A stretch of 64,000 nucleotides of DNA from Gammaproteobacteria bacterium (lineage in GTDB: Bacteria > Pseudomonadota > Gammaproteobacteria > GCA-001735895). The notes under the pieces were generated by a model. It worked only from the letters and a program-made list of their open reading frames with translations. It had not been told where the DNA came from and did no database searches. The stretch's first letter is position 1; the number at the start of each line of letters is the position of its first letter. A program made the position numbers and the translations under genes. Positions 19,218-57,960 of this stretch are shown in pieces. The stretch lies in the NCBI GenBank assembly GCA_050295575.1, contig JBNKPX010000002.1, forward strand, positions 1,817-65,816, written 5' to 3'.

Positions 19218-19220
19218 AAC

Positions 19221-20608: not shown

Positions 20609-20626
20609 AATCGCTTTTTTACAGGT

Positions 20627-20995: not shown

Positions 20996-21046
20996 CAGCT
21001 AATATTAATTTTTGTTGCGTAACTCTGCGGTTAAACCCAAAAAAAT

Positions 21047-21325: not shown

Positions 21326-21328
21326 TGT

Positions 21329-22336: not shown

Positions 22337-22357
22337 TAATACATTTACCAGTTATCT

Positions 22358-25831: not shown

Positions 25832-26818
25832 TCAAGAAGGCAAAAACTCGATTGGATAGGTCACCGTTACCGGTTTGACATCCTTGCTACCAAAGTTGAA
25901 TGCCTTAATACGTTTGGCCAGACCGGACTCCAGACTTTTATCATTCAGGGCACTGGACACAATCACCAGATCAGTAACCTTACCACTGGCTGCGATGGTT
26001 ATGCGAAATATGATTTTACCCTTTAGCCCCGGGTTCTTACGTCTGGCACGATTATACAGACGCGTTAACTGTCCTTTATTCTGATCAAGGATCAGACTGA
26101 TTTCTTCCTCTGCACGTATTTGCCCGACAGCTGATTTTGTGGAGGTTTTTGCGCTAGCAAGCTTTGTTTTCTTACCTTTTGGAGTTTCCTGAGCAACCAG
26201 AGATTGTTTCACCTGGCTGATTTCTCGCTGTGATAGCCTGGTTGTACCACGGGCTTGAATTAATTGTTGATCAGCAACTCCCTGACTACCCTTGCCTGCA
26301 TCGGCAAGTAATAAGTCACGTGTTTTCTTTTTGGTGTCTACAACTGCTGCTCGGGACCCACCAGCCTGAACGGCTGCACCGACCATACTGCTAATAGAAT
26401 CCGTATCCATTAAATCTGATAGTTCATTGCTGAGTGCCAGCAGGCCACTATCAGCCGCCTTTTCACGCGCATTTTTTTGTGTTTGTGTTAAAGGCTTGTC
26501 GATCTTTTTGTCCTGAATCTTCTTAACGACAGGCTTAGGTTTTGGCTTTGGCTTAGGCTTGGGTTTTGGTTTGGGCTTAGGCTTGGGTTTTACAATTTTC
26601 GGCTGCGTCTTTTTTTTTTCGAGCAGGAAATTAGCGATACGAGGTGGTATTTTTACGTGAGCTTTTCGTTCAACAGGAGGCAGGTTGATCGAGGATAGAA
26701 TAAATGCAGCTGAAAACATCAGCACTACAACAACTACTGTAATGAGATGAAACCGACGATCAGCTGGACTTTGTAGTGACCAGTTTAATGCTAGTTCATG
26801 GTAACGATTCAAAGTCAT
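25832..26818 (-). CDS. TonB-like energy transducer with (KP)10 spacer and AgmX/PglI-type C-terminal domain
   Basis: 328 aa with an N-terminal TM anchor FHLITVVVVVLMFSAAFILSSI and a (KP)10 rigid linker. The C-terminal roughly 80 aa (GKIIFRITIAASGKVTDLVIVSSALND...VTVTYPIEF) has a TonB_C-like pattern. 4-nt overlap with upstream exbD. Confidence 0.8.
   Translation of the reverse strand: MTLNRYHELALNWSLQSPADRRFHLITVVVVVLMFSAAFILSSINLPPVERKAHVKIPPRIANFLLEKKKTQPKIVKPKPKPKPKPKPKPKPKPKPVVKKIQDKKIDKPLTQTQKNAREKAADSGLLALSNELSDLMDTDSISSMVGAAVQAGGSRAAVVDTKKKTRDLLLADAGKGSQGVADQQLIQARGTTRLSQREISQVKQSLVAQETPKGKKTKLASAKTSTKSAVGQIRAEEEISLILDQNKGQLTRLYNRARRKNPGLKGKIIFRITIAASGKVTDLVIVSSALNDKSLESGLAKRIKAFNFGSKDVKPVTVTYPIEFLPS
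26531..26590 (-). repeat. 60-nt hexanucleotide tandem repeat encoding (Lys-Pro)x10
   Basis: aggctt/aggttt/tggctt... units read directly. An A10 homopolymer (T10 on the plus strand, 26610-26619) lies 19 nt upstream in the same CDS. Confidence 0.95.
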
Positions 26819-27333
26819 CCTGCCTGACCTCGAGATGCTGCTTTCTGCATAGTTGCAAAAGCGATATGGGTGTAATTAACCTCACGACATGAGGCTAATA
26901 TCTTTCTTAACAATTGATAGGAGATTTCTTCATCACCCATAACAGTAATAGCTTTGCCAGTATCGGCCTGCTGTGTACCTTCAATAATAGTGGTTCTTGA
27001 CGACTGAAATGTTAACTCATCGACCAGCCCTTTGATGAGAATATCTTCTTTATCAATTTCATCGGCGATATTGGCGACTTCCCTGCCCTGTAAGAGGATC
27101 TTTTCCTTGTTGACAAATATTACCAGGGTTTCTTTTGGAGCCTGAGTTGCCACAGAGGTCGGTAAACGAATATCTTTTTTACTGGGTAGCTGTTGAACAT
27201 TAGATGAACTCACCAGCAGGAAGAAGACCAGAATAGTGAAAATATCCATCAAGGAAACGAGATTAAGCGCAGGTCTTTTACGCTGTTCGTGGTGCCTCTC
27301 CATGCGTTTTGCACGCTTTGACATCTTCATCAT
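26815..27333 (-). CDS. exbD: ExbD/TolR family protein (second copy)
   Basis: 172 aa. Basic N-terminus then LNLVSLMDIFTILVFFLLV TM, with a periplasmic ExbD-like domain. 4-nt overlaps on both sides. Confidence 0.85.
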   Translation of the reverse strand: MMKMSKRAKRMERHHEQRKRPALNLVSLMDIFTILVFFLLVSSSNVQQLPSKKDIRLPTSVATQAPKETLVIFVNKEKILLQGREVANIADEIDKEDILIKGLVDELTFQSSRTTIIEGTQQADTGKAITVMGDEEISYQLLRKILASCREVNYTHIAFATMQKAASRGQAG

Positions 27334-27863
27334 TGCTTAACTTCCTCAGTAGCCCCTGTATCCTCAGTCGCCTGAATATCAGGGGCATCACCTATAGAGA
27401 TATTTGGGAACAACTCTACAGTTTCCACATCAGTGACGTTTACCACATCAGCACTACGAACTCTATCCATAACCTGAATCAGTGTCCTGTAACTCACCTT
27501 GCGATCCAGCAACAGGGTTATATTCTGTTCATCTGGAAATCGAGATTTGATCTCAACCAGAATGTCGGTAAAGGCTTTCCAGTTTGTTTTATCATTATCA
27601 CGCGCCAGATACTTGATACGCCCCAGATTAGCATCTCGAATTTCAAAGCTATCAGGTGTTATCAATAATTCTAGCTGTAACTTTATCTGCTCCTGTTGGG
27701 CTGCTTTACTATTTTTGGATGGTAAATTGAGTTCCAGGATAGTAATGCGTGAAAAAACCGCAGTGATCAGTAGAAAAGGAACCAGTATCACCATTAAATT
27801 AAGAAATGCTGTGATATTGAGCTCCACAGTTTCCTTAACCATTTTTCTTCTGACCAACTTCAT
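27330..27863 (-). CDS. exbD: ExbD/TolR family protein (first copy)
   Basis: 177 aa. ELNITAFLNLMVILVPFLLI TM signature and a periplasmic domain. Confidence 0.85.
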   Translation of the reverse strand: MKLVRRKMVKETVELNITAFLNLMVILVPFLLITAVFSRITILELNLPSKNSKAAQQEQIKLQLELLITPDSFEIRDANLGRIKYLARDNDKTNWKAFTDILVEIKSRFPDEQNITLLLDRKVSYRTLIQVMDRVRSADVVNVTDVETVELFPNISIGDAPDIQATEDTGATEEVKQ

Positions 27864-28632: not shown

Positions 28633-28857
28633 TTATTCGTTATCCTGATTTCGAAGAAAAGTGATAGTCTGCATAAAAAGTGAATTTTTTTCATCTTCCT
28701 CACCGGTATCACCCTTTGCCTTAATGCCATTCATTTGAAGATCGATATTGTCCAGAATTTCTTTTCTTTGCCTACGATAATCTTCGAATCCTATATGATT
28801 CTGATAATAATCAATAGATAAATCTCTTAACACAGCAGAAATGCCTTTATCATCCAT
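28633..28857 (-). CDS. small cytoplasmic protein, function unknown
   Basis: 74-aa ORF starting 8 nt after the kinase stop, with a charged C-terminal half. No family recognised. Confidence 0.5.
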   Translation of the reverse strand: MDDKGISAVLRDLSIDYYQNHIGFEDYRRQRKEILDNIDLQMNGIKAKGDTGEEDEKNSLFMQTITFLRNQDNE

Positions 28858-28865
28858 ACTAAACC

Positions 28866-31787
28866 CTATATCTCTCTCAGTACTCTAAAACCGGTAGATG
28901 TATCTGCCTTGCCATTGTGAGCTTTTGAAGTGCTTATTGTACAGCTTTCCATAGGATCGAGGAAGGAGCCGCCTACCGCTTCCAGTTTTCGACCGCTTTG
29001 GTACACCCATTCCTGTACATTACCCACATAGTTAACAAGCCCCCAGTCATTTTGGCTGCCTACCGTATAGTAGACCAAATCTCCACCTTTTTGAAACCCT
29101 CTGGTGCTGAGTTCGCAGTTTCTATTGGGATCTAGTTTTTTACTACGAGATTTCGCTGCATGAAGCCATTCCTTTTTACTCGGCAAGCGATACTTTTTAC
29201 CTGATTGGCTGCTAAGCCAGGAAAGATAAGCCTCGACCTGGCCAATTGATACCCCCGAGACTGGAAGCTGGTCATTTTTCGATAGCTTGCTGCAGATACC
29301 CTTTGCCTCACAAAACTGATTATATTCTCCTATCGAAATTTCATACTTGGTAATAGCGAAGGGCTTAATATTGTTGCTTCCAGGAATAACAACCATTTCC
29401 GGGCCATAACTGGCATTCTTTAGCTTATCCTTACACATTGCTCTTTTGCCACGTCTACCAAGTCCAGCCAGAGATATGTCACATGGATCTCTGGATTGAA
29501 TATTGATTTGTGACAATAATGGCGAGCTAAATAGCTTTAGACTGTATTTTTTTGCATCTAAAGCCCGCTCGGGGAATGATTTACCTATTTGAATAATACA
29601 TCCAGCCAATGAGCGAACGATAGTATTCTCAATCTTTGAATATCGTCCGGGATCCAGTTGTTTAAGCTTTTTTATACCAATTTCAAAGTTGCGCATATTG
29701 ATGCGTCCCTGACATTCAAGCAGATTATTTACATTGTCTAGTGCGATATTGAACTGATCGGTAACCTGCTGGCTTTTTTCTGCATTTACTGTTGCTTTTT
29801 GCTGTGCCAGTTTTTGTTGCTGTAATCGCTGTCTTCTTTCCTGCTCAAGCTTTTTCTTACGCTCAAGCTCTAGTTTTGCCTGTTCGATCCGCTTCTGCTG
29901 CGCAATTTCACGAGCCCTGGCTATGCTCGTAGTAAATTGATCAAGTAATGTTGTTTGAACCGCATAGCGCTTTGCTGCAACAATCAACTGCTCGGCCTGG
30001 GTATACTTTTTCTCACTGACTGCTGCTTTTATGTGTGAGACATAGAGATTAAAGATAGCCGCCATTTTTTCCTCAATCCACGGATCTGAATCACCCGTTA
30101 ATTTTTTCAGGTCAGAGATATCCTTCCAGATAGAGTCCTGCCAGAGATCAGAAAAATTGGCATTCATTATGAGCTTTACAATATTCTCCTTGTAGAAGTC
30201 AATTCTGACCTTTAACTCCAACTCATTCCTGATATCGAACTCTGAATAGGCTGGAGGTTCGGGCTCTTTGACAAAAAACAGAAAATAACTACTGATTGCT
30301 GCGGCAAAGACCAGTGCTAAAGCAGTTACCATCCAGCTCGAAGACTTAAGCTTAGGCGTTATGTCTTCTTCAAAATTACTGATAGATTCCTGTCTGTCTT
30401 CACGATCAAAAGCGATTGCCCTTTCAATAGCCTGCCACTCAAATTTCTTGATATGAGCAATTCGTTTGGGCTTTAATCCCTGTCTTTTCGCCTCGTCGGC
30501 GGGGACTTTGTTATAGGGGTGTTTACCAGTCAATACTTCGTAAGCTACACAGCCTAATGCATAAACATCATCGCGTACGTCAGGTTCCTTCCCTTCCAGC
30601 ATCTCCAGACTAGCATAGGCAGGGGTAAGCGCACCGAGATTACCTGCGTCAAAAACGGTATGGTCCTGAGGGCTCCCTTCAAGATGCTCTACCTGGGCAA
30701 CTGCACGTGCTATACCAAAATCAAATACCTTGGTCAGACCTTTTTTGGTAACGAAAACATTGCCTGGCTTAAAATCAGAATGAATAATATTGCCCGCATG
30801 AGCATGTTTTAACGCAGCGGTCATACCCCGGATGATTTCCCAGGCATCATCGGTCGGCAAACCGGTGGACTTATAACGACGGATTAACTGATCAAGTGGA
30901 TCTCCATCAAGGAATTCCATGGTCATAAATACGGTATCACCATCACGATCAAAATCATGCACATTCACAATATTCGGGTGTGCTATGCGTTGTGATTTTC
31001 TTGACTCGCGCTGTAGTGAAATAAAGGCTTCCGGGTGAGATTTGAATTCTTCACTCAATACCTTGATCGCCACATAAGGGTCACGATCTTTGGCTTCAAC
31101 CTTTAATAAATCTTTTGCCTTATAAACTATCCCCATACCGCCGGCACCAAGAACCCGCTCAAGAACAAAACGCTTCTTCAGCAGATGCTGATCAGTATAG
31201 TCAGTCCGTTTTTCTCCTGAGTCAGCCGCTCCAGCACGCTGCTCCAATGTGACAGTATGCTGCAAGCGAGTATCATCATCTATCAGGGTTTGGCTTTCAG
31301 ATGATGCTAATACTCTGGTGCGCTGAAACTGAGTTGAATCGCTTTCTCCCTGCTGCGATCGATTTTTATGTTCGCCAGTTGGGCCTGCACTTTCCTGCTC
31401 AGGCTCAAACTCTGCTGGCACTGTTATCGGGAAATCTGTTTCATCCATCGCACCCGGGGCCGTTGCAGGTTTTTTGTGCACATTGTTTGCTTTCTGAACA
31501 GCCCTGCCTGCCGGAGCAGTGTGCTTTTTAATTGCTATTCGAGTAGCATCCTGATGATTTGGTGGCTGTTGAGCTTTCGGTTTTCTGGGCGCTATACGAG
31601 TAGCATCCTTGCCTGCTCCAGTCTGTGGAGCAGCAGGTTTTCTGACTACGGTGCGGTTAGCATCCTCAGTCGTGCGAGCAGGTACTGCTGCCGGTTTTCT
31701 CACCGCAACACGCGTTTTATCAGTCGACTCCAGCCCCGGGTTTTGTGGTCTAATTACCCGTGCTTTTCCCTGTTCGTTATCCTTCAT
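28866..31787 (-). CDS. T6SS-associated Hanks-type Ser/Thr kinase (PpkA-like) with C-terminal FGE-sulfatase domain
   Basis: 973 aa. Kinase motifs GAGGMGIVYKA, VAIKVL, HSDFKPGNV, DFGIAR. TM WMVTALALVFAAAISSYFLFFV, then a periplasmic coiled coil. The C-terminal FGE/SUMF1 pattern is MVVIPG...YEISIGEYNQF...YRLPSKKEW...GNVQEWV...GGSF...GFRVLREI. ATGA overlap with pppA. Confidence 0.9.
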   Translation of the reverse strand: MKDNEQGKARVIRPQNPGLESTDKTRVAVRKPAAVPARTTEDANRTVVRKPAAPQTGAGKDATRIAPRKPKAQQPPNHQDATRIAIKKHTAPAGRAVQKANNVHKKPATAPGAMDETDFPITVPAEFEPEQESAGPTGEHKNRSQQGESDSTQFQRTRVLASSESQTLIDDDTRLQHTVTLEQRAGAADSGEKRTDYTDQHLLKKRFVLERVLGAGGMGIVYKAKDLLKVEAKDRDPYVAIKVLSEEFKSHPEAFISLQRESRKSQRIAHPNIVNVHDFDRDGDTVFMTMEFLDGDPLDQLIRRYKSTGLPTDDAWEIIRGMTAALKHAHAGNIIHSDFKPGNVFVTKKGLTKVFDFGIARAVAQVEHLEGSPQDHTVFDAGNLGALTPAYASLEMLEGKEPDVRDDVYALGCVAYEVLTGKHPYNKVPADEAKRQGLKPKRIAHIKKFEWQAIERAIAFDREDRQESISNFEEDITPKLKSSSWMVTALALVFAAAISSYFLFFVKEPEPPAYSEFDIRNELELKVRIDFYKENIVKLIMNANFSDLWQDSIWKDISDLKKLTGDSDPWIEEKMAAIFNLYVSHIKAAVSEKKYTQAEQLIVAAKRYAVQTTLLDQFTTSIARAREIAQQKRIEQAKLELERKKKLEQERRQRLQQQKLAQQKATVNAEKSQQVTDQFNIALDNVNNLLECQGRINMRNFEIGIKKLKQLDPGRYSKIENTIVRSLAGCIIQIGKSFPERALDAKKYSLKLFSSPLLSQINIQSRDPCDISLAGLGRRGKRAMCKDKLKNASYGPEMVVIPGSNNIKPFAITKYEISIGEYNQFCEAKGICSKLSKNDQLPVSGVSIGQVEAYLSWLSSQSGKKYRLPSKKEWLHAAKSRSKKLDPNRNCELSTRGFQKGGDLVYYTVGSQNDWGLVNYVGNVQEWVYQSGRKLEAVGGSFLDPMESCTISTSKAHNGKADTSTGFRVLREI

Positions 31788-42972: not shown

Positions 42973-43494
42973 ATGTCTGATAGTATTCATGACAAACTTA
43001 AAAGAGTCAGAAAACCCCGCGTACACATCACCTATGATGTGGAAACTAATGGAGCATTACAAGAGAAAGAATTGCCTTTTGTTATGGGTGTAATGGGTGA
43101 CTACTCCGGCGACAATACAGAAAACAAAAAGGCTCTTAAGGATCGTAAATTTTCTCAGATCGATCGTGATAACTTTAATGAAGTGATGAATAATGTTTCA
43201 CCAACGGTTGACATGAAGGTTGAAAACACACTAGAAGCTGATGGCAGTGAAATACCGGTTAGCCTCGACTTCAAAAGTATGGAAGACTTTGAGCCGCAAA
43301 ACATCGTCAACAAAGTTGACCCACTTAAAAAGCTGATGGAGACCCGAAATAAATTACGCGATCTTCTCACAAAAGCAGATCGCTCTGAAGAACTGGAAAA
43401 TATTCTCGAAGAAGTACTCAGCAGTACAGATGCTCTGGCTTCTTTGCAGGGTGAACTAGGTACAGATGAAGAAAAAAAAGAGGGTGATGAATAA
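42973..43494 (+). CDS. tssB: T6SS contractile sheath small subunit TssB (VipA)
   Basis: [32 protein letters not shown] signature. Confidence 0.95.
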
Positions 43495-44984
43495 TGAGTG
43501 AAACAGAAAGTCAAGCGGCCGAGCAGGATGCTGAAGTTGTAGAGCAGGCCAGTTTTCTGGAACAGGCTATCTCAGCTACCAAACAGACTTCTCGCGATGA
43601 AACCGAAGAGCTGCTGAAAACGTTAACCCGTGAAGCAATGGATGGCACGGTAAAATGGGATAAAAACCTGTCGGTAACCATCAACAATGCAATTTCAAAA
43701 ATTGATCAGGTATTGTCCAAACAGTTATCCGCCATCATGCAACATGAAAAATTTCAGAAACTGGAAGGCTCATGGCGCGGTTTACATCATTTGATATCGA
43801 ATTCTGAGACCAGTAGCGGTCTGAAAATTCGCATGCTAAATATCAGTAAAAAAGAACTTACCAAGGACCTGGAAAAGGCTGTTGAGTTTGATCAAAGTCA
43901 AATCTTTAAAAAGATTTACGAAAGTGAGTTCGGCACAGCGGGTGGTGAACCCTATGCTGCATTGATCGGAGACTATGAATTTACCAATCATCCTGACGAC
44001 CTGGATATGCTGACCAGCATGTCAAATGTTGCCGCCGCTGGTTTCTGCCCGTTTATTTCAGCAGCTGACCCTAAGATGTTTGGTTTTGACAGCTTCACCG
44101 AGCTATCCAAGCCTCGTGATCTTGAAAAAATATTTGACTCTGCTGAATACGTTAAATGGCGTAGCTTCCGTGACAGCGAAGACTCCCGCTTCGTAACCTT
44201 AACCATGCCTCGTGTACTGGCACGTCTGCCTTACGGTACTGACACCAAACCTGTAGAGGAATTCAATTTTGAAGAAGCAAGGCTGGATGAATCCGGTCGC
44301 CAGCTTGAAAGTGAGCACGACGAATATTGCTGGATGAATGCCGCGTATGCCATGGGCACCACATTAACCCAGTCTTATGCAGAATACGGCTGGTGCACCA
44401 GTATTCGAGGCGCTGAAGGTGGCGGTAAGGTCCAGGGTTTACCCAGTCATACCTTTATCAGTGACGATGGTGATAGTGACCAGAAATGTCCAACAGAGAT
44501 TGGCATCACCGATCGTCGTGAAGCTGAATTAAGCAAACTAGGGTTCCTGCCTCTATGTCATTACAAAAATACCGACTATGCGGTGTTTTTTGGCGCGCAG
44601 ACCACGCAAAAACCTAAAAAGTTTAATGACCCTGCTGCAACAGCAAACGCAGAAATTTCTGCACGCCTGCCCTACATCATGGCTACATCACGTATTGCTC
44701 ATTTCCTCAAGGTTATGGCTCGCGATAAGATCGGTTCCTTCATGGAAGCCAGCGATGCGGAAGAATGGTTAAACAACTGGATTGCCGGCTATGTCAATGC
44801 AAGCCCAGGTGCCAGCGCCGAGATGAAAGCCAGGTTCCCACTTGCTGAGGCCAGCATAGAGGTTAAAGAAGTACCAGGCCAACCTGGTGTTTTCAGTGCC
44901 ATCGCTTATATGCGTCCATGGCTGCAAATGGAAGAACTCAGTGCTTCCATGCGTATGGTAGCCAGTATTCCCAAAGCAGGGTAA
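43494..44984 (+). CDS. tssC: T6SS contractile sheath large subunit TssC (VipB)
   Basis: 496 aa. [26 protein letters not shown] and [14 protein letters not shown] motifs. 1-nt overlap with the tssB stop. Confidence 0.96.
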
Positions 44985-44999
44985 ATAAACTTGTTTAAA

Positions 45000-45028
45000 C
45001 CACCTCTTACCACAAGAGGTGGTTTTTT
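45000..45028 (+). terminator. strong intrinsic terminator/attenuator between tssC and its paralogue
   Basis: CCACCTCTT-ACCAC-AAGAGGTGG perfect 9-bp stem followed by TTTTTT and preceded by AAA. Lies 16 nt after the tssC stop. Confidence 0.75.
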
Positions 45029-45045
45029 ACCCAAGTTCGAGAAAA

Positions 45046-46536
45046 ATGCAGTCTACTACTATCGACTCAATTAACCTGGATGAGCTCTATTCAAGATCGC
45101 CCTATATTACTGGAGTTAATCCATTTTTAGAGGAACAGGATCCAGTTAAGGCACTCGCTTTCTGGTTAACCGAGTTTGTACCTGCTCAGTGTGTACATGA
45201 TGTAGAAGATATAATTCCATCCATCCAGAGATCAATTGCTGACCTGGACGAAATGATCAATGATCAGGTGAATGAAATCATTCACCACCCCAAATTTCAA
45301 AAACTGGAAGCCTCCTGGCGAGGATTATGGTATCTGGCCGTACAGGCGGATGGCGCTAAACAGATTAAACTGAAAGTACTGGATATAAACTGGAGAGAGG
45401 TGTCGCGCGACATTTCCAGAGCGCTTGAATTTGATCAAAGCCAGTTATTTAAGAAAATATACAGTGAAGAGTATGGCACTCCCGGCGGCGAACCCTATGG
45501 CGTCATTATAGGTGATTATGAGATCAGCCATAAAACCTCACACAGCCATCGCTATAACGACCTGGAAACGCTGGATGGTCTTGCGCAGGTTGCAGCCGCT
45601 TCATTTGCCCCTTTTATCACCGGCGCAGCCCCTGAGTTATTTGGCCTGGACGATTTTTCCACTCTGGGAAACCCGATAAACCTACATGCCGTCTTTGCAC
45701 AAAAAGAATACATAAAATGGCGCGCCCTACGCGATAAAGCTGATTCACAATTTGTTGGCCTTACCTTACCCCATATTCTGATGCGCCTGCCTTATCGAAA
45801 AACACCGGGTAGCTATAAAGGGCTGTTTTTTTACGAAAAATTCGCCAGCAAGGGCCGAGAAAATTACTGCTGGGGCAACGCCGCTTATGGTTTCGCTGGC
45901 ATACTGCTACGTGAATTCATCAATGTAGGATGGTTCGGACATATTCGAGGCGTCCCACGCAATCAAATCGGTGGCGGCCTGATATCATCCCTGCCCTGTG
46001 ACTGCTTTGAAACGGATGCAGAGGATATTGCGCATAAACCACTAACCGATGTCATCATAACGGATACCAGAGAAAGAGAGTTAAGTGAGCTTGGGCTGAT
46101 ATCACTTTGTCAATGCTACGATCTTCCCTTAGCCGCTTTTTACAGCAATCAATCGTTGCACAGGCCTGCGAGATCAAGCACCAAAGAAGGCAATATCAAT
46201 GCACGCCTGTCAGCAATGTTACAACACGTATTATGCGGATCACGGATTGCACACTATATTAAGGTCATTATCCGCGATAAGGTCGGCTCCTTTATTACGG
46301 CTGAAGAATGTGAAGACTTATTGCGTGAATGGTTATTTAAATATACCACCGGACGCGAAGACCTGGATTGGGAAGAACAGGCGCGCTACCCACTTCGAGA
46401 AGCTGCAGTCGAAGTAAAAGATCACCCTGAAAAACCCGGTGATTACGTCTGCATTATGCAATTACGCCCGCACTATCAGCTAGACCATATGGTCTCTGAA
46501 CTGGAGCTGGTTACCGAACTGGCACAATCAGCCTGA
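45046..46536 (+). CDS. tssC: second TssC-family sheath protein (ImpD/TssC40-like paralogue)
   Basis: Same conserved blocks as the upstream TssC (KFQKLEASWRGLWYL, FDQSQLFKKIY, GGEPYGVIIGDYEI) but clearly divergent. The ATG at 45046 is preferred because the track start 45019 lies inside the terminator hairpin. Confidence 0.9.
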   Translation: MQSTTIDSINLDELYSRSPYITGVNPFLEEQDPVKALAFWLTEFVPAQCVHDVEDIIPSIQRSIADLDEMINDQVNEIIHHPKFQKLEASWRGLWYLAVQADGAKQIKLKVLDINWREVSRDISRALEFDQSQLFKKIYSEEYGTPGGEPYGVIIGDYEISHKTSHSHRYNDLETLDGLAQVAAASFAPFITGAAPELFGLDDFSTLGNPINLHAVFAQKEYIKWRALRDKADSQFVGLTLPHILMRLPYRKTPGSYKGLFFYEKFASKGRENYCWGNAAYGFAGILLREFINVGWFGHIRGVPRNQIGGGLISSLPCDCFETDAEDIAHKPLTDVIITDTRERELSELGLISLCQCYDLPLAAFYSNQSLHRPARSSTKEGNINARLSAMLQHVLCGSRIAHYIKVIIRDKVGSFITAEECEDLLREWLFKYTTGREDLDWEEQARYPLREAAVEVKDHPEKPGDYVCIMQLRPHYQLDHMVSELELVTELAQSA

Positions 46537-50068: not shown

Positions 50069-52756
50069 ATGATAACAATTGACTTAAAATCACTAGTTGG
50101 AAAACTCAATGAAAACTGCCGAGCAGGGCTCGAAGGGGCAGCAGGACTTTGTCTGGCACGCACGCATTATAATGTTGAAATTGAGCACTGGATTCTAAAA
50201 TTACTGGAAACACCTGATAGCGATATTGTTGCACTGGTTGAAAAGTTCGAGTTAGACCAGGGTAAGTTGATGGCTGATCTTAATAAAGAACTTGATCGAT
50301 TAAAATCAGGCAATACACGCGCACCAGCCCTCTCGCCTAATGTCGTAGAGCTGAGTAAAAATGCCTGGATGCTGGCATCGGTAGAATACAGTCATCCACA
50401 AACTACATCTGCACATATACTGGCGGCACTATTGCTGGATGATAGCCTGCGTCGCTCGACTGAAATAACATCAGGAGAGCTTAAGAAAATTGCTCCCGAA
50501 TCATTACGTGCCGTGTTACCCAGTATTGTCGGCAGCACCAGTGAATCAGTTTCAGTAGCTATTGGAGATACCTCGGATTCACAAAAATCTACTTCAGCGA
50601 CACCAACCAGCACCCCTTCGCTGGACAAATTCACCATCAACCTGACCCAGGATGCTAAAAACGGCAAGATAGACCCTGTACTGGGGCGTGACGAGGAAAT
50701 CCGACAGATTGTCGATATACTGATCCGCCGCCGTCAGAACAACCCTATCCTCACTGGTGAAGCCGGTGTGGGTAAAACTGCCGTAGTTGAAGGCTTTGCC
50801 TTACGTATTGCTTCTGGTGACGTGCCTGCACCACTTAGAGGTGTGACCGTGCTAAGTCTCGATCTGGGCCTGTTACAGGCAGGAGCCAGCGTCAAGGGTG
50901 AGTTTGAAAACCGTCTGAAATCAGTCATTGCAGAAGTCAAGGCTTCACCAGACCCAATCATCATGTTCATCGATGAAGCCCACACCATGATAGGTGCTGG
51001 TGGCAAAGAGGGACAGGGAGATGCCGCCAACCTGCTCAAGCCAGCGCTTGCTCGCGGTGAGTTAAGAACTATTGCCGCTACTACCTGGGCAGAATATAAA
51101 AAATACTTCGAACGCGATCCTGCTTTGACTCGACGCTTTCAGGTGGTAAAGATTGAGGAACCCGACGAATCTAAAGCCATCGATATGATGCGTGCCATCT
51201 CAACCATGTTATCCATCCACCATGGCGTACGCATTATGGATGAAGCCATCGTCGCATCGGTTAAACTCTCCAGTCGTTATATCACCGCACGACAATTGCC
51301 CGATAAATCGGTCAGCCTGCTGGATACCGCCTGTGCACGCGTCGCACTCAGCCAGAGTGCTACACCCGCAGCCGTCGAAGACACGCAGAGACGCATCACT
51401 CAAACCGAAGCCAATATTATTTCCCTGCAACGTGAGAATGCCACGCTGGGCAATTGCGATGATCGCATTGCAGAATTAGAGCAGGAAACAATAGCGCTAA
51501 AAGAAGAACTGGAAACACAAAAAGAGCAGTGGGAAAAGGAAAAAGAAATTGTTTCTCAGATACACAAGTTACAGAGCAGCATAGAAGATGATTTTCATGC
51601 TCAGGGCCTATCCAAAGAAGAAATGGCTGAGCCTGATGCGCTGCAACAGCTACCCGAAGAAGACCGCGAACGCATTAAAGCCGAGTTACATCAATTGATG
51701 CAGCAATTAACCGAGGTGCAATCTGGCAACCCAATGATACAGGTTAATGTAGACGGTCAGGCTATAGCCGAAGTGGTGGCCAACTGGACAGGTATACCCG
51801 TAGGTAAAATGGTATCCGACGAAATTCATTCAATCCTTGATCTTGCCGATAGGCTTAATGAGCGAGTGATCGGCCAGAGACATGCACTTGAATCAATCGC
51901 CAAAAGCATCCGTACCTCACGTGCAGGACTAACCGACCCACGCAAACCGATTGGCGTGTTCTTTATGGCTGGCCCCAGTGGCGTCGGAAAAACCGAAACC
52001 GCTCTGGCACTGGCCGAGGTGCTATACGGCGGCGAACACAATGTCACAACCATCAACATGTCCGAATTCAAGGAAGAACACAAAGTCTCTATGTTGCTGG
52101 GTTCACCTCCTGGTTATGTCGGATTTGGCGAAGGCGGTGTACTTACCGAAGCGGTAAGGCGTAAGCCCTATAGTATTGTTTTACTGGATGAAATGGAAAA
52201 AGCCCACCCCGGCGTGCAGGATATTTTTTACAATGTTTTTGATAAAGGCACCATCAAGGATGGTGAAGGCAGAGATATAGACTTTAAAAATACCATCATC
52301 ATCATGACCTCCAATGCCGGAGAGGAACACATCCGAGCCATCTGTGCACAGGCTGAAGAGCTACCTGATCCAGAGGTATTACTGGATAATTTCCGTCCAC
52401 AGCTGCTGCATTATTTTAAGCCCGCTTTCCTGGGTCGGACTACGCTAATCCCTTATTACCCCTTAGGTGATGAAGACCTGCTAAAAATCACCAAAATCAA
52501 TATGAACAGGATTGCGAAACGCGTTAAAGATCACTACAACGCTGAATTCAGTTATAACGAAGATGTCATGCTGCATATAGTCGCACGCAGTCAGGAAGTG
52601 GATACTGGCGCCAGAAATATAGAAAACATTCTAACCCGTACCATGCTGCCTGAAATGGCTACCGAATGTTTGTCACGTATGGCAAATAATGAATCCATTG
52701 AAAAAATTCATGTTGATGTGGATGACGATGGTAAATTCAGCTACAGCATTTCCTGA
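50069..52756 (+). CDS. tssH: T6SS AAA+ ATPase ClpV (TssH)
   Basis: 895 aa. Clp N-domain. Two Walker A boxes (GEAGVGKT, GPSGVGKT) and a middle coiled coil. Confidence 0.95.
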   Translation: MITIDLKSLVGKLNENCRAGLEGAAGLCLARTHYNVEIEHWILKLLETPDSDIVALVEKFELDQGKLMADLNKELDRLKSGNTRAPALSPNVVELSKNAWMLASVEYSHPQTTSAHILAALLLDDSLRRSTEITSGELKKIAPESLRAVLPSIVGSTSESVSVAIGDTSDSQKSTSATPTSTPSLDKFTINLTQDAKNGKIDPVLGRDEEIRQIVDILIRRRQNNPILTGEAGVGKTAVVEGFALRIASGDVPAPLRGVTVLSLDLGLLQAGASVKGEFENRLKSVIAEVKASPDPIIMFIDEAHTMIGAGGKEGQGDAANLLKPALARGELRTIAATTWAEYKKYFERDPALTRRFQVVKIEEPDESKAIDMMRAISTMLSIHHGVRIMDEAIVASVKLSSRYITARQLPDKSVSLLDTACARVALSQSATPAAVEDTQRRITQTEANIISLQRENATLGNCDDRIAELEQETIALKEELETQKEQWEKEKEIVSQIHKLQSSIEDDFHAQGLSKEEMAEPDALQQLPEEDRERIKAELHQLMQQLTEVQSGNPMIQVNVDGQAIAEVVANWTGIPVGKMVSDEIHSILDLADRLNERVIGQRHALESIAKSIRTSRAGLTDPRKPIGVFFMAGPSGVGKTETALALAEVLYGGEHNVTTINMSEFKEEHKVSMLLGSPPGYVGFGEGGVLTEAVRRKPYSIVLLDEMEKAHPGVQDIFYNVFDKGTIKDGEGRDIDFKNTIIIMTSNAGEEHIRAICAQAEELPDPEVLLDNFRPQLLHYFKPAFLGRTTLIPYYPLGDEDLLKITKINMNRIAKRVKDHYNAEFSYNEDVMLHIVARSQEVDTGARNIENILTRTMLPEMATECLSRMANNESIEKIHVDVDDDGKFSYSIS

Positions 52757-52850: not shown

Positions 52851-54257
52851 ATGATCAAAAATCGTAGTTATGTGCAGAGCTTACTCGTTTCTGTTTTGCT
52901 GTTCACTGGATTGCTGCTTACATCCACTGTATCAGCAAAACAGCATGAGTTACTCAGCACTATTGAAAAGCTGGATAAAAAATTTCAAAACTTATCCATA
53001 GAATATTTTCGTACTAATACAGCCCAGGCTGAAAAAATTCACGATATAGATAAACTAGCTACAGCTGTTAAAAATTTGCAGCAACAGCAAAATATCAATG
53101 CAGCAATTCAACTTATATTTACCAATATAGACACGCTAGAGCAAAATGCATTTCACCCTTCTTTAGTCGACTTCTTTAGATTCTTACTCGAACAAAATCA
53201 ATGGTTGATGGCTAATCAAATCCAGCAGATTATTCAAAAATCAGCTGACGATCTAAACCTGATGAAGTCAAATCTCTATCTCGCTGCCTTCTATGCTGAT
53301 CATCTAAAATGGTCAAAAACCTTAACGACACTGGGAGAAAACTTTGACCAGTTAGCTGATACCGATGCAGCCTATGCCCATTTATTACAGGGCACAGCGT
53401 TGCAACACCTCAAACAACATCGTAAAGCCATCAAATGTTATGAAAAAATCCCTCTAACCTCCGGTTATACAATATATGCTCAGTTAAATACCGCAATTGC
53501 TGATATTCGTCTGGGCTGGCTCAGTGATGCGCGCAAAAAGATTAAAGCCATGATAGAAAATCCTGATATTGATACCGATGAGGAAACCAGACATCGGCTG
53601 TATCTAATTTTAGGTTATGCATTGCTGCAAAAAGAATACTACCGTGATGCACGCACGGCTTTTCGCCATATCAGCCTCGATAGTCGCTACACCAGTAAGG
53701 CCTTACTGGGTATAGCACTGAGCGCCACCAATCAGGGCGATTATATTGGTGGACTGAGTGCATTAGCAAAATTAAAACAATTCAAAACCAACGATCTGCC
53801 CTACGATGAAGCCTTTCTGGTTCAGCCTCTGTTGTACCAGAAACTGAAGCAACCGCTATCGGTAGCATCCACCTATTCAGAAGCTGTCGATCACTATACC
53901 CAGCGACTGGCCGAGGTCGAGGCCTTAATCTCAGCAAAACTGAAGCCTGACAATTTACATTTAGATACTAAAACTGGTGATGTCACCATACAGCAGTTAA
54001 GACTTGAATATAGTCAGCTATACCCTGCTTCCTTTTTTACCAATCGCAGCAGTTTAATCAAGCAATTGAAAAACACATCGCAAAGTGCACTGAAAAAGAA
54101 AATTCAAACCCTACTGCATGAATACAATAAAGCCAGCAAAACGGTTCTGGACAATTTATTACAACAACGTCAGAAATTTTTAGCCAGTTACCTGAATCAG
54201 GCTCGTTACGGTCTTGCCCGCCACTACGACAACCAGCAACGGAGTGAGCAAAAATGA
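52851..54257 (+). CDS. secreted helical-repeat (TPR-like) protein, function unknown
   Basis: 468 aa. Signal peptide ...LLLTSTVSA/KQ and a TPR-like helical-pair pattern. AAGGAGAG RBS. Its stop overlaps the next gene's start by 4 nt. Confidence 0.6.
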   Translation: MIKNRSYVQSLLVSVLLFTGLLLTSTVSAKQHELLSTIEKLDKKFQNLSIEYFRTNTAQAEKIHDIDKLATAVKNLQQQQNINAAIQLIFTNIDTLEQNAFHPSLVDFFRFLLEQNQWLMANQIQQIIQKSADDLNLMKSNLYLAAFYADHLKWSKTLTTLGENFDQLADTDAAYAHLLQGTALQHLKQHRKAIKCYEKIPLTSGYTIYAQLNTAIADIRLGWLSDARKKIKAMIENPDIDTDEETRHRLYLILGYALLQKEYYRDARTAFRHISLDSRYTSKALLGIALSATNQGDYIGGLSALAKLKQFKTNDLPYDEAFLVQPLLYQKLKQPLSVASTYSEAVDHYTQRLAEVEALISAKLKPDNLHLDTKTGDVTIQQLRLEYSQLYPASFFTNRSSLIKQLKNTSQSALKKKIQTLLHEYNKASKTVLDNLLQQRQKFLASYLNQARYGLARHYDNQQRSEQK

Positions 54258-57064
54258 CTAGCCTGACACGCCTGTTGAAAACGATCATCCCGTTCATCAT
54301 CATAACTTTGCTGAGTGCCTGCCTGGCGGTACCGGATAGATCTACACAACCGAAAACCCTTAGCGAAATTGATAGAAAAGCCCCCAACAGCAAGGTTTTT
54401 GTTAAACATAAATCAGAAGAAGAGATCAGAAAGGCTTACACCGAATATTTAAATAACTCGGTAATAGACGATAAATCTCGTCTGGATGCCTTAACTCGAC
54501 TAGCAGAACTGGAATATAGCTCCAGTAACAAACTGATTAATGCTGACGGTGACATTGACAAGGTTAATCCAGTTGAAGAACAGCTCTACTATCAACGACT
54601 GGAAAGAACTATCGACCTGTTAAAAACATCGATCAGAGATTACCCTAAAGCCAAAGAAAACGGGATCCTGCTATATCAATTAGCCAAAGCTCAATCACAG
54701 AATAATCAACATAATGAATCCATAAAATCTTTAATCACGCTGGCTGAAAAATTTCCGAAGAGCCCTTTCTACATTGAAGCCCAATTCCGTATAGCCGAAG
54801 ACGCTTTTTCAAGACAGAGTTATAGTGAAGCAGAATATGCCTATAGTGAAGTCATCAATGCCCCTGGAAACGCCGTATTTTATGAAAAAGCACTGTTCAA
54901 GCGCGGCTGGGCACGCTTCAAGCAGCAATACTATTCAGACGCCAACGATGACTTTATCGAAGCCATAACAAACCATAATTTTAAAGCCCAGGACAAGCTC
55001 GACACCGCTGAAAAAGAACAGTTTGATGAGTACTTTCGTTCTATCGCACTTTCTTTTTCTTATTTAAACGATCCGCAACAACTGGCTAGCTATTTCCAGA
55101 ATCTTCCTGACTTCAGGTATACCTATCACACCTATGAAGTCATCAGCGAACTATTCCAGAAGCAGGAGCGTTATTCGGATGCAGTAAGAACCCATCGCCA
55201 GTTCATTAAAGATTTTCCAAAATCAGATAACATCCCCTACTCTTATCTGAAGATCATCGAAATCTGGAAAAACAGTGGTTTTAATCAGAAAATTTACCAG
55301 GCTATCGAAGCCTTTTACGTCAACTATAACCCCGACAGTAAGTACTGGATAAACCAGAATGAAGATTCAAAGGTTAATCGCCACATCAGACGCGCTTTAA
55401 GAGAGTACGTCGTATTGATGAGCGCCTATTACCATAACCGTTATCAATCCACTGCTGCAAAAGTCGATGTAGCCAATGCACAATTATGGTACCAGAGGTA
55501 TCTATCCCACTACGCTGCCTATGCACAGCAGGATAATATCTACTTTTTATATGCCGAGTTACTCACTCAACTTAAACAGGATGAAAAAGCCTTCAGTTAT
55601 TATGAGCAGGCCGCATTTGATAATGACCTGATCCTGAATAAAGAAGCAGCCTATGCATCGGTTATCAGTAGTGACAAGTTATTTCGCAAGCTGAAGCAGC
55701 AAGCCTATCTGGACAAACTTATTGATTACTCGCACAAGTTTGCGCAGCAGTTTACAGATGACAAACGGGCCCATCAGGTATCACTACATGCTGCAGAACT
55801 GGCCTATCAGTCACATAAATACAAAGAGACCATCGAACTGGCTGACCTTGCAGCGCCCAAAAGCCCTCCAAAATCACTGGCTTATATTAACAATCTAAAA
55901 GCTGCATCATACTTCAGCCTGAATGAGTTTGAGACTGCAGAAGAGATTTATGGCAAGCTGCTAAAATCAACAAAAGCCAGCGACAAGCAATACGCAAACT
56001 TCAAGAACAAACTAGCCTTAAGCATCTACCGACAGGGTGAAGCCAGTCAAAAAGCCGAGGATATCAACCGCTCTATCTATCATTACGCGCGAATCTCCGA
56101 AATCGTCCCCACTACGTCGACGGCAGCCACCGGCCTGTATGATGCCATTGCACTCAATATTCAACACAAGCAATGGAATTCATCGGTGAATCTAATCAAA
56201 CGATTCCAGAAACTTTACCCCAGGCATAAACGGGCTGCTGACGTATCCAAAAAACTTTCCCTGGCCTACCTGGGATCTAATCAGGGTATAAAAGCGGCAC
56301 AGGAATTTGAGAAGATTGCACAGGTAGATAATAACCGTGAAGTTCAGGCGGCAGCACTCTGGCAGGCTGCTGAACTGTATCAGGAAAAGAATAAAACCGA
56401 TGAAGCGATTAAAGCCTACAAAAAATACACTGAACAACCCAATATTCCGCATACACAACGCCTTGAAGCCAGTCAAAAGATTGCTCAGCTGTATGCGAAA
56501 AAAGGTAACCTCAAATACAGTAACATCTGGCTATACAGAATCCTCAAGGCTGATGGCAAGGCACTGAATAATGTGAAAACCGATCAAAGTCGTCAGATTA
56601 CCTCAGAGTCTTATCTGGCTCTGGCCCGCTTTGAGAAAAATCGCTTTGAAAACATCAAGCTGGTTAAACCACTGAAGAAAAACCTGCGTAATAAAAAACA
56701 GGCCATGCAAAGTTCTGTAGAATTATTTGCCAAGGCATCACTCAATAAAATTTATCCCATCGCCACAGAATCAACCTTCTCGATAGGGAAAATTTACCGC
56801 GACTTCAGTAAATCACTGTTAAATTCAGAACGTCCCGATAATCTGAATGCTGAAGAACTTGATCAGTATGAAATATTACTGGAAGATCAGGCTTTCCCAT
56901 TTGAGGATAAGGCCATTGAATTTTTTGAAATCAATTTAGCGCGCATTAAAGACGGCCTGTACAACGAGTGGATCCAGCAAAGTCATAAACAATTGATTTC
57001 ATTATTCCCGGTTCGCTATGACCGCAAACCTCGGGTCGATGATTACGTGAAGGAAATCAAATAA
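54254..57064 (+). CDS. large TPR-repeat lipoprotein
   Basis: 936 aa. Lipobox ITLLSAC. Many YbgF/BamD-type TPR units (e.g. PKSPFYIEAQFRIAEDAF, ALFKRGWARFKQQYYSDA). Confidence 0.8.
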   Translation: MTSLTRLLKTIIPFIIITLLSACLAVPDRSTQPKTLSEIDRKAPNSKVFVKHKSEEEIRKAYTEYLNNSVIDDKSRLDALTRLAELEYSSSNKLINADGDIDKVNPVEEQLYYQRLERTIDLLKTSIRDYPKAKENGILLYQLAKAQSQNNQHNESIKSLITLAEKFPKSPFYIEAQFRIAEDAFSRQSYSEAEYAYSEVINAPGNAVFYEKALFKRGWARFKQQYYSDANDDFIEAITNHNFKAQDKLDTAEKEQFDEYFRSIALSFSYLNDPQQLASYFQNLPDFRYTYHTYEVISELFQKQERYSDAVRTHRQFIKDFPKSDNIPYSYLKIIEIWKNSGFNQKIYQAIEAFYVNYNPDSKYWINQNEDSKVNRHIRRALREYVVLMSAYYHNRYQSTAAKVDVANAQLWYQRYLSHYAAYAQQDNIYFLYAELLTQLKQDEKAFSYYEQAAFDNDLILNKEAAYASVISSDKLFRKLKQQAYLDKLIDYSHKFAQQFTDDKRAHQVSLHAAELAYQSHKYKETIELADLAAPKSPPKSLAYINNLKAASYFSLNEFETAEEIYGKLLKSTKASDKQYANFKNKLALSIYRQGEASQKAEDINRSIYHYARISEIVPTTSTAATGLYDAIALNIQHKQWNSSVNLIKRFQKLYPRHKRAADVSKKLSLAYLGSNQGIKAAQEFEKIAQVDNNREVQAAALWQAAELYQEKNKTDEAIKAYKKYTEQPNIPHTQRLEASQKIAQLYAKKGNLKYSNIWLYRILKADGKALNNVKTDQSRQITSESYLALARFEKNRFENIKLVKPLKKNLRNKKQAMQSSVELFAKASLNKIYPIATESTFSIGKIYRDFSKSLLNSERPDNLNAEELDQYEILLEDQAFPFEDKAIEFFEINLARIKDGLYNEWIQQSHKQLISLFPVRYDRKPRVDDYVKEIK

Positions 57065-57080
57065 CAGGGTTAAGCGCATA

Positions 57081-57731
57081 ATGAAGACATCATCTACATA
57101 CACATCATCCCTGTTCTGCTCGAAAAGCATACGAGTTATTGCTGCATTTTTGGTACTACAACTATTCACTGCCTGTAGCCAGAAATCGCCACCGCCTCCA
57201 ACAGTGGAAACCGCACCGGTAAAAGTTCAGCCACAGACTCCGGTGATTGAAGATAAAGTAATAGATAGTGAAATGTATCAACAGGGTCTGGATGCATTAG
57301 CACTGAATGACTTCAGCAACGCAAAAAAAATATTTCAGCAATTCATCAAGGATAATCCCACTCTCTCGGGTGCCTACAGCAATCTGGCATTGATAGAATA
57401 TAAGCAGAAAAATTATGACCAGGCCTTGAAGTTAATAGAAATTGCAATCTCTATAAATCCACAGCAGGCGGCAGCCTTTCACTTAAGAGCTCTACTCTAT
57501 CTACAACAGGGCAAGATAAAACTCGCCCGTGATGATTATCAAATGGCTATCAAGTTTAAGCCAGATTACACTAACGCACACTATAACCTGGCCCTGCTTT
57601 ATGATATTTATCTACAGGAAATCGCGCTGGCGATAGAGCACTATAATATTTACCTGTCGCTCACCACGGAAAAAGATACCGCAACACGCGAGTGGGTTAA
57701 CCATCTGAAAAACACGCTGAAAAATGGCTAG
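57081..57731 (+). CDS. small TPR-repeat lipoprotein
   Basis: 216 aa. Lipobox QLFTAC. Canonical TPRs (AYSNLALIEYKQKNYDQALKLIEIAISINP...). Confidence 0.8.
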   Translation: MKTSSTYTSSLFCSKSIRVIAAFLVLQLFTACSQKSPPPPTVETAPVKVQPQTPVIEDKVIDSEMYQQGLDALALNDFSNAKKIFQQFIKDNPTLSGAYSNLALIEYKQKNYDQALKLIEIAISINPQQAAAFHLRALLYLQQGKIKLARDDYQMAIKFKPDYTNAHYNLALLYDIYLQEIALAIEHYNIYLSLTTEKDTATREWVNHLKNTLKNG

Positions 57732-57960
57732 AATCTTTATACTGATCCTGTTTCTGGGCTTACAGCCTGCACCATTACTGGCGCAGGATAATGATGAAAT
57801 CGAGCTACGCATTACCACTATCAAGAGCAATAAAGAATTACCTAAAATACTTTATATCGTCCCCTGGAAGGATGTAAAAGCGACCCCAAAACCGCAGAGA
57901 CAACTGGTTCTACACAGTCTGTTTGGTGACTTATTCGAGCCAATTCTACCCAGACCTTAA
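57724..57960 (+). CDS. small secreted protein, function unknown
   Basis: 78 aa. Signal peptide MARIFILILFLGLQPAPLLA/QD. 8-nt overlap with the upstream TPR gene suggests translational coupling. Confidence 0.55.
   Translation: MARIFILILFLGLQPAPLLAQDNDEIELRITTIKSNKELPKILYIVPWKDVKATPKPQRQLVLHSLFGDLFEPILPRP

Follow-up and report, generated by a model that had tools for sequence, protein, structure and literature searches.

Four envelope genes follow clpV in a type VI secretion locus

We analysed a stretch of 64,000 nucleotides (the window) from contig JBNKPX010000002.1 of a gammaproteobacterial assembly (GCA_050295575.1), and in particular four genes for envelope proteins that follow clpV. The window carries a complete type VI secretion system (T6SS) encoded by two divergent operons, tssA-B-C-C'-E-F-G-clpV on the + strand and tagH-tssJ-K-L-M-tagF-PP2C-STK on the - strand, the latter continuing into orf74, an ExbB-like gene, two ExbD-like genes and a TonB-like gene. 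The T6SS is flanked by this motor half on the left and by the four genes, the tetratricopeptide repeat (TPR) half, on the right; the halves lie 24 kb apart on opposite strands (Table 1). Judging from sequence comparison, the four genes are very probably the periplasmic and outer-membrane half of a T6SS-linked copy of the Agl/Glt core complex.

The four co-directional open reading frames (ORFs) of 468, 936, 216 and 78 aa, here called T468, T936, T216 and T78, lie where the initial annotation had placed them, and the overlaps it had listed were read directly from the sequence. The TGA of clpV is separated by 94 nt from the T468 ATG (52851), with AAGGAG 8 nt before the ATG. T468 and T936 share an ATGA overlap (54254-54257) with GGAG 9 nt upstream, T216 starts at 57081 after a 16-nt gap, and the T216 TAG (57729-57731) and T78 ATG (57724) give an 8-nt overlap (57724-57731). 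With all genes on the same strand and no terminator-like site found on the + strand from clpV to the end of T78 (scan to 58088), their description as appended to the clpV operon stands. The TAA of T78 (57958-57960) and the stop codon of the convergent SulP gene (reverse complement of 57957-57959) have the palindrome TTAA at 57957-57960 in common. The earlier statement that the operon ends exactly at the SulP stop is correct for the window genome and does not extend to others, the stop-stop overlap being lost even in genome G011.

Signal peptides and lipoboxes were present as first described. T468 has a type-I signal peptide with its cleavage context between ...TSTVSA and KQ, and that of T78 falls between ...PLLA and QD. 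The lipobox cysteine is kept in 68/74 homologues of T936, where it is invariant in alignment A1, and in 62/76 homologues of T216, never with Asp at +2; it is rare among homologues of T468 (6/70) and T78 (1/64). The lipoboxes of T936 and T216 thus exceed what chance would give. The four-gene block as a whole is conserved in 62/80 related loci. Even the small T78 has a conserved motif, I-K-G-N-x-E-L-P-x-x-L-Y-x-V-P-W ... L-H-S-L-x-G-x-x-F-x-P, and its P40, P47, W48 and P73 are invariant (n = 54 sequences).

Searches of the four proteins against Pfam, NCBIfam and PADLOC returned only generic TPR matches, with every specific family model below its cut-off and no link to a defence system. T216 scored above the Pfam cut-offs for TPR_1/2/16, and T78 had no match in the curated libraries. 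None of the four matched a T6SS-associated curated model (Tss, TagF, TagH, TagJ and others; NCBIfam and Pfam), in line with the earlier view that none is a known Tss or Tag component; the same Pfam and NCBIfam searches matched the neighbouring genes strongly to TssA-M, TagF and TagH. An AlphaFold2 (AF2) model of T468 built with 42 homologues (pLDDT, the predicted score of the local distance difference test, 90.8; predicted template modelling score, pTM, 0.83) predicts a helical TPR-like solenoid (66-361), a beta-hairpin (378-385) and a long C-terminal helical pair (394-467). Foldseek searches with this model found generic TPR superhelices and peptide-binding TPR receptors only. T78 modelled alone in AF2 reached a pLDDT of 67, its mature part having no secondary structure, which predicts disorder.

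These generic matches raise the question of a housekeeping TPR accessory set of the Tol-Pal/YbgF(CpoB), BamD or another type. The best curated matches of T936 are YbgF/CpoB (TIGR02795, 54.8 bits, cut-off 90.1) and BamD/YfiO (TIGR03302, 38.3 bits, cut-off 81.4; T216 reaches 29.1 bits), and a marginal match to the CpoB TPR was the sole specific sequence match in a PDB profile search with the T936 alignment (E = 5e-4). CpoB/YbgF and BamD also resemble the window proteins in having TPR_6-type repeats and in being envelope TPR proteins that work with a TolQR-type motor. We consider this identity extremely improbable and rule it out on the sub-threshold scores, the generic nature of TPR_6 repeats, protein size (936 aa for T936 versus 263 aa for YbgF/CpoB) and gene context. 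No TolB, Pal or TolA is found among the annotated T6SS-cluster and module genes, and the partners of the contiguous paralogue described below are ExbB, two ExbD and a GltG-like protein. The initial annotation had set against its own proposal a Tol-Pal/YbgF/Bam set that does not co-vary with the T6SS; the copies instead co-vary with it strongly.

The four proteins are paralogues of a stand-alone Agl/Glt core cluster

Whole-genome searches with T936 returned two tiers, orthologues at 55-89% identity in a few relatives and a paralogue at ~30-35% identity in most genomes of the family. In the cases examined, the paralogue always lay within one contiguous, co-directional operon with the order (620-772 aa TPR)-(~940 aa TPR lipoprotein)-(~200 aa TPR)-(~100 aa)-ExbB-ExbD-ExbD-GltG-like, which was read in G004, G011, G012, G019, G007, G003, G027, G059, G044 and G061. 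T936 aligns over its full length with the 939-aa gene of these stand-alone clusters (30-35% identity), and T216 aligns with the ~200-aa gene after the GltD-like gene (27-37% identity). Profile comparison with hhalign matched T468 (69 homologues) to the first gene of 11 stand-alone clusters at a probability of 99.8% (E = 6e-29, 270 columns) and T78 to their 'extra gene' at 99.3% (E = 8e-21), the latter pair having the motif IxGNKELPKxLYxVPW in common.

The order and sizes of the stand-alone genes are those given in Table S3 of Luciano et al. (2011, PLoS Genet, PMC3169522), who described an Agl/Glt 'core complex' made up of the Group B genes gltC, gltD, gltE, gltG, aglR, aglQ and aglS plus one extra gene, hosted by Gammaproteobacteria, Geobacter and Fibrobacter. 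For Marinobacter the table gives GltG 321 aa, AglS 162, AglQ 176, AglR 221, one skipped gene, GltE 162, GltD 939 and GltC 550-648; Maqu_1595-1602 is an example core complex, and the GltD homologues span 933-1016 aa (PMC3169522). According to the same paper, Myxococcales lack a homologue of the extra gene, and GltF occurs in Myxococcales and Bdellovibrionales only (PMC3169522). The published core is a contiguous cluster of unknown function, and the T6SS is not mentioned there (PMC3169522). TERTU_1670-72, which adjoin the Teredinibacter turnerae T6SS, are however tabled as AglR/Q/S homologues (PMC3169522), and the window ExbB (205 aa) equals TERTU_1670 in length.

By these comparisons T468 is GltC-like, T936 GltD-like, T216 GltE-like and T78 the core's unnamed eighth gene. 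The initial annotation had drawn a parallel with GltD, GltE and GltF from size, order and localisation. The first two assignments hold, T936 and T216 being full-length paralogues, but T78 corresponds to the core's eighth gene, and a GltF label for it is unsupported by sequence because Luciano et al. restrict GltF to the two orders named above. T78 and GltF have in common a position after gltE, small size, secretion and predicted disorder, and the comparison is one of these traits alone. For T468, previously described simply as a signal-peptide protein, the signal peptide was correct and the TPR-like solenoid and GltC position had been missed.

The window module and the published core share the same eight gene families, export signals, similar sizes, a TonB-like GltG tail and a two-ExbD stator with Asn/Asp asymmetry. 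They differ in layout. Whereas the core genes form one contiguous cluster, those of the window are split into two halves that end divergent T6SS operons, and this loss of contiguity is what distinguishes the variant. The window module also belongs to a clade of its own, is paired with a kinase, often includes orf74, and has a GltC-like subunit ~150-300 aa shorter. The stand-alone core is already published; the split copy as a conserved T6SS accessory appears to be new. Our literature search found no paper in which the T6SS is connected with the Agl/Glt core or with ExbBD/TPR accessory genes, most subscription journals lying outside its coverage.

The motor half encodes a putative heteromeric stator and a GltG-like transducer

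The remaining core genes are found at the end of the - strand operon. The two ExbD-like proteins score 65 and 63 bits against PF02472, and the GltG-like protein, which runs from an N-terminal transmembrane (TM) helix containing a His through a (KP)10 linker to a C-terminal AgmX/PglI domain, scores 69.7 bits against NF033768 (AgmX/PglI tail, cut-off 40) and matches the GltG model at E = 3.6e-15. In ExbD2, SLMDIFTILVFFLL is almost invariant. With the ExbD2 Asp kept and hardly any variation in the TM segments, the motor looks to be functional. The asymmetry between an Asn in ExbD1 and an Asp in ExbD2 occurs in both T6SS-linked and stand-alone clusters, G059 excepted, and fits a functional heteromeric stator comparable to AglR with AglQ and AglS. 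The small ORF between kinase and ExbB, orf74, has no signal peptide and was found by tblastn at the same position in 12 sandwich-type loci (T6SS arms between the two halves), at identities from 78% down to 29%; it was not detected in the divergon-type loci described below. We take it as a probable ninth gene, real and conserved, in modules of the sandwich type.

Table 1. Genes of the split module and adjoining T6SS genes in the window.
Feature	Position	Strand	Evidence
T468: secreted TPR-like solenoid, type-I signal peptide, shortened GltC-position protein	52851..54257	+	ORF 468 aa; hhalign, AF2
T936: large TPR lipoprotein, lipobox LLSAC, GltD-position protein	54254..57064	+	ORF 936 aa; full-length paralogy
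T216: small TPR lipoprotein, lipobox LFTAC, GltE-position protein	57081..57731	+	ORF 216 aa; Pfam TPR_1/2/16
T78: secreted peptide of ~57 aa, the core's unnamed eighth gene	57724..57960	+	ORF 78 aa; hhalign
TssH/ClpV, final T6SS gene before the TPR half	50069..52756	+	TIGR03345, 1273 bits (cut-off 885)
PpkA-like Ser/Thr kinase, directly upstream of the motor half	28866..31787	-	Pkinase 208-452, FGE-sulfatase 804-930
orf74: small cytoplasmic ORF (74 aa) between kinase and ExbB	28633..28857	-	tblastn conservation
ExbB/TolQ/AglR-like proton channel, 205 aa	27880..28497	-	PF01618, 97 bits
ExbD/TolR-like 1, 177 aa, Asn at the transmembrane Asp position	27330..27863	-	PF02472
ExbD/TolR-like 2, 172 aa, transmembrane Asp kept	26815..27333	-	PF02472
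GltG-like TonB-type transducer	25832..26818	-	NF033768; GltG model

The module is co-inherited with one T6SS lineage

A profile scan with the T6SS-type T936 over 185,579 species genomes gave 172 relatives, of which 80 loci were kept; linkage was counted over those 56 whose upstream flank reached 3.5 kb or more. T6SS-cluster genes adjoin the TPR half in 47/56 loci. In 40/56 the T468 homologue directly follows ClpV on the same strand, with a gap below 1.1 kb in 38. T6SS genes immediately follow the TPR half in 4/56, and kinase and motor half lie divergently upstream of it in 3/56. The hosts include Cellvibrionaceae (Teredinibacter waterburyi, Saccharophagus sp. K07, Agarilytica, Cellvibrio, Marinagarivorans), Kangiellaceae, Aliikangiella marina, Colwellia, Psychromonas, Thioalkalispiraceae, Ectothiorhodospiraceae, Woeseiaceae, Candidatus Tenderia and many metagenome-assembled genomes (MAGs). 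G011, G004 and the Galathealinum endosymbiont G061 share the full sandwich layout, and in G019 its arms are on separate contigs. ExbB is found 26-28 kb from T936 in Agarilytica, Bs31, Aliikangiella marina, Colwellia 75C3, Teredinibacter waterburyi, Psychromonas and Saccharophagus K07.

Two variants at individual loci may be recorded here. In G061 (L040 2460-8378), four genes with no Pfam match (689, 309, 351 and 581 aa) stand between clpV and the T468 homologue, and a convergent block of VgrG, DUF2169, PAAR and Tle1-like effector genes follows the TPR half. At L073, a contig labelled uncultured Lentimicrobiaceae (Bacteroidota), the T6SS-type T936 (47% identity) nests with sequences from Gammaproteobacteria; mis-binning of the contig is a more probable explanation than an occurrence in Bacteroidota.

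The association was also followed from the T6SS side. The window encodes two adjacent TssC paralogues (43494-46536, +) that are ~40% identical to each other. The second TssC, at least 59% identical across loci, is a good marker of the Glt-linked T6SS lineage. Of 400 genomes sampled evenly across the class, 78 encode a GltD-like protein and 8 the T6SS-type T936, or 9 if the intermediate copy of G337 (37% identity) is included. All of the genomes with a TssC2 orthologue (6/6) carry the T6SS-type T936, on the same contig. The T6SS-type T936 was not found in 13 other genomes, whose TssC2-like matches reach only 43-49% identity and most of which have two adjacent TssC. Co-occurrence with the T6SS, a check proposed at the outset, holds across genomes, both in these counts (6/6 genomes, 47/56 loci) and for relocated TPR halves (7/8).

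The relocated halves come from the 9/56 loci with no T6SS gene in the flank, which show that the TPR half is separable. In 7/8 genomes with such an 'alone' half, a T6SS-type ExbB (73-84% identity) and the subtype-specific second TssC (64-77%) are encoded elsewhere, mostly ~17 kb from each other on one contig; neither was found in the eighth genome, a 2.1-Mb MAG. In G012, a genome of the same genus as the window's, the TPR half stands alone (L059/L041, contig C119) beside genes for GCS2, AstE, RF-2 and a class-II aminoacyl-tRNA synthetase, neighbours that by ORF sizes and order appear the same as those left of the T6SS in the window (17727-23824). Its T6SS and motor half are on contig C150 (L043/L044/L136), where ClpV is not trailed by a TPR half. 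The arrangement looks like relocation of a ~28-kb block of T6SS and motor half. As the TPR half can be moved off the T6SS (G012; 9/56 loci), coupling in cis is not obligatory.

Such separability would also be expected if the split copy were an independent envelope system that merely shares a genomic island with the T6SS and has no part in it. Stand-alone copies do occur without any T6SS, and unrelated cargo is common in genomic islands. We nevertheless regard hitch-hiking of this kind as very unlikely. The linkage persists where T468 identity has fallen to 26-40%, across Cellvibrionaceae, Kangiellaceae, Colwelliaceae, Psychromonadaceae, Thioalkalispiraceae, Ectothiorhodospiraceae and others, and adjacency has been kept through several rearrangements. 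Each half closes a T6SS operon at its 3' end, the gaps being short and no terminator intervening, and even unlinked TPR halves share a genome with the T6SS and the motor half in 7/8 cases. Moreover, a separate stand-alone copy is kept as well in G001, G004, G011, G012, G013, G019 and G061 (the window's own assembly, 74% complete, has the T6SS-type copy only). This retention beside the split copy points to specialisation and not redundancy. That the function of the split Glt-like module is tied to the T6SS is a conclusion we hold with good confidence.

The motor half is paired with a PpkA-like kinase

The T6SS kinase directly precedes ExbB in all 17 of the 17 T6SS-type loci examined. It has a PpkA-like architecture, with a Pkinase domain, a single TM helix and, in the periplasm, a coiled coil and an FGE-sulfatase domain of the TagR type (Pfam for domains; Table 1), and from this domain content it looks like a PpkA::TagR-like fusion. 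At G422, L102, L106 and L126 the unit is reduced to kinase-motor on one side and the TPR half on the other. In the closed genome G422 (L137-L139, 1.076-1.122 Mb), the nine genes of kinase, motor and TPR half form a self-contained divergon, which lies ~15 kb from a T6SS of another subtype (ClpV 50%, TssM 30%) with its own PP2C and TagF. No kinase was found for that other-subtype T6SS in the part fetched, and the ~15 kb between was left unannotated.

In Pseudomonas aeruginosa, the TagQRST-PpkA-Fha1-PppA pathway of the H1-T6SS offers a close comparison for this pairing. Like it, the window encodes Fha/TagH, a PpkA-like kinase, a PP2C phosphatase and TagF, and the periplasmic FGE-sulfatase domain of the window kinase is of the kind found in TagR. 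Outer-membrane lipoproteins and an energy-using inner-membrane complex are encoded beside the kinase, as are TagQ and TagST. The window differs in having no TagQ homologue and no TagS/TagT ABC transporter among the annotated cluster genes. Its module would use the proton-motive force through an ExbBD-type stator where TagST uses ATP; any equivalence would be one of function.

Possible roles of the module

We think it likely that the module is a T6SS-dedicated paralogue of the Agl/Glt core, acting as a proton-driven trans-envelope transducer that serves the T6SS. From the gene content and conservation described above, we infer that its parts would assemble physically, couple to an energy source and pass on a signal. 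If ExbBD-TonB, TolQRA and the AlphaFold-based Agl-Glt model are taken as guides, an ExbB5/ExbD2-type stator (ExbB with an Asn-type and an Asp-type ExbD) would use the proton-motive force to pull or rotate the GltG-like transducer. The (KP)10 linker of the transducer would span the peptidoglycan, and its TonB-like C-terminal domain would engage a scaffold formed beneath the outer membrane by the lipoproteins T936 and T216. T468 would serve as an adaptor, and so would the disordered T78 peptide, whose near-invariant LYxVPW is a candidate to join the TonB-like domain by beta-strand addition, a mode predicted for the GltF-GltG pair. Finally, in the kinase-input version weighed below, the periplasmic TagR-like domain of the kinase would read the state of the module, a role akin to that of TagQRST for PpkA in P. 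aeruginosa.

Features of the Myxococcus xanthus Agl-Glt gliding and Nfs spore-coat machineries match those of the window module. Both have a proton-driven AglRQS-type motor, a GltG transducer, GltD/GltE TPR lipoproteins and a GltC TPR connector, and in both a small disordered subunit (GltF or T78) follows gltE in the operon. In the AlphaFold model of M. xanthus, GltD and GltE start at Cys1 as lipoproteins, the TonB-like domain of GltG docks on GltD, and the disordered small subunit bridges GltC and GltG. The window GltG-like protein differs from the Myxococcus machinery in lacking a cytoplasmic FHA domain, and gliding is not expected. GltA, GltB, GltH, GltK, GltI, GltJ and CglB did not appear in Pfam/NCBIfam scans of part of the window, which included no search aimed at them.

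Within this overall explanation, we tentatively prefer a role as an envelope-side input or positioning device for the PpkA-like kinase, although the case falls somewhat short of even odds. The preference follows from the constant adjacency of the kinase, the portable kinase-module unit of G422 and the fact that no TagQ-, TagS- or TagT-like gene is among the annotated cluster genes. A module of the same identity might instead act mechanically or structurally, anchoring TssJLM to the wall and outer membrane, helping it to cross or remodel peptidoglycan, or energising passage through the outer membrane. The TPR half is co-directional with tssBC, the baseplate genes and clpV in 40/56 loci, taken as co-transcribed, and ExbD/TolR-type proteins and TPR lipoproteins are classical connectors of wall and outer membrane, as in Tol-Pal. 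In the Myxococcus model GltD is a mechanical shaft under the outer membrane. A proton motor driving secretion also has a precedent in GldLM of the type IX secretion system (T9SS; PMC8986121). As the window module would be, it is a proton-driven inner-membrane motor of the 5:2 type that has a transducer across the periplasm and serves one secretion apparatus; the GldL and GldM families are unrelated to ExbB, ExbD and GltG and serve another secretion system, and for the role of the window module GldLM offers an analogy. Against a structural role, the kinase precedes ExbB in 17/17 loci, and in G422 the module has stayed with the kinase and not with TssJLM genes, the adjoining T6SS being of the other subtype (TssM 30% identical). 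We therefore judge a mechanical or structural role rather unlikely, behind the kinase-input role.

Agl-Glt complexes move through the Myxococcus envelope and stall where the cell makes contact. More speculatively, the module could be a similar, proton-powered motor resembling a focal adhesion, patrolling or probing the envelope, stalling at sites of contact or damage and switching on the kinase through its TagR-like domain so that the T6SS is assembled and fires there. We hold this to be a distinctly unlikely extension of the kinase-input role. If true, it would amount to a mechanical aiming device for a secretion system, and the core complex would be seen to have served originally as a general mechanosensor or transporter of the envelope.

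Several observations weigh against a Glt-derived module that feeds the kinase of the T6SS. The TPR half is in an operon with sheath, baseplate and clpV genes and not with the kinase, a placement that fits a structural role as well as signalling. In T. turnerae T7901, where the T6SS comprises TERTU_1639-1668 by published locus tags, the same tags suggest that the kinase (TERTU_1640) and the ExbB-like TERTU_1670-72 may lie at opposite ends; if this placement is correct, kinase-ExbB adjacency is broken there. The loci with no T6SS gene in the flank (9/56) and G012 show, as above, that the TPR half can be separated. The link to Glt rests on the assignment by Luciano et al. of gammaproteobacterial clusters of identical architecture, made by PSI-BLAST and phylogeny (PMC3169522), together with the GltG tail model, and the stand-alone core complex was itself described with no known function. 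Against the GltE equivalog NF033758 (cut-off 225), T216 scores 23.6 bits, no better than Tgl/PilW. The model did not discriminate, since the stand-alone T216 homologue reaches 44.3 bits on it, no better than Tgl or MamA; an NCBIfam scan of the stand-alone homologues likewise matched no GltC or GltD model.

The core complex, an orphan known since 2011, widespread and conserved in Gammaproteobacteria, gains a concrete cellular context from its T6SS-linked paralogue. If the overall explanation is correct, the module would be a new class of T6SS accessory, a trans-envelope transducer driven by the proton-motive force. Its action would be either on the threonine-phosphorylation checkpoint, to which it would give input in place of TagQRST, or on the membrane complex, by mechanical means. 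Cultured carriers (Teredinibacter, Saccharophagus sp. K07, Aliikangiella marina GYP-15, Colwellia sp. 75C3 and Psychromonas) make genetics feasible.

The split copy forms a distinct lineage

In a tree of 86 T936 homologues, a single branch of ~0.9 substitutions/site (SH-aLRT 100) separates 74 T6SS-type from 12 stand-alone sequences. An ExbB tree rooted on canonical TolQ/ExbB paralogues places the core-type ExbBs in a clade (96/99) apart from canonical TolQ/ExbB. Within it the T6SS-type copies are monophyletic (99/96), with the ExbB of an unsplit cluster in G337 as sister (97/98). This cluster (L140 5689-13797) is contiguous, its ExbB is 68% identical, and neither a T6SS nor a kinase lies nearby. 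The cluster may represent the form from which the T6SS-linked copy arose.

The divergon forms with kinase-motor on one side and the TPR half on the other (G422, L102/106/126) fall outside a moderately supported sandwich subclade (87/80) that holds the window copy, and their branching order relative to that subclade is an open polytomy in the ExbB tree. We propose that an ancestral contiguous eight-gene operon would have split, each half becoming the 3' end of one divergent T6SS operon. The data are consistent with a series from contiguous operon to kinase-attached divergon to T6SS arms lying between the halves, an order that the tree does not establish. Insertion of a T6SS into a contiguous core operon in a single step was considered and ruled out: since the halves occupy opposite strands and each closes a T6SS operon at its 3' end, the layout takes no fewer than two rearrangements. 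Contiguous operon, kinase-linked divergon and secretion-system sandwich together offer an example of operon evolution in which a machine is split and grafted onto another.

In Hahella chejuensis, a lone trio of GltC/D/E-like genes (HCH_02601-02603; 640, 963 and 203 aa) lies ~22 genes from the full core, HCH_02626-34 (Luciano 2011, Table S3).

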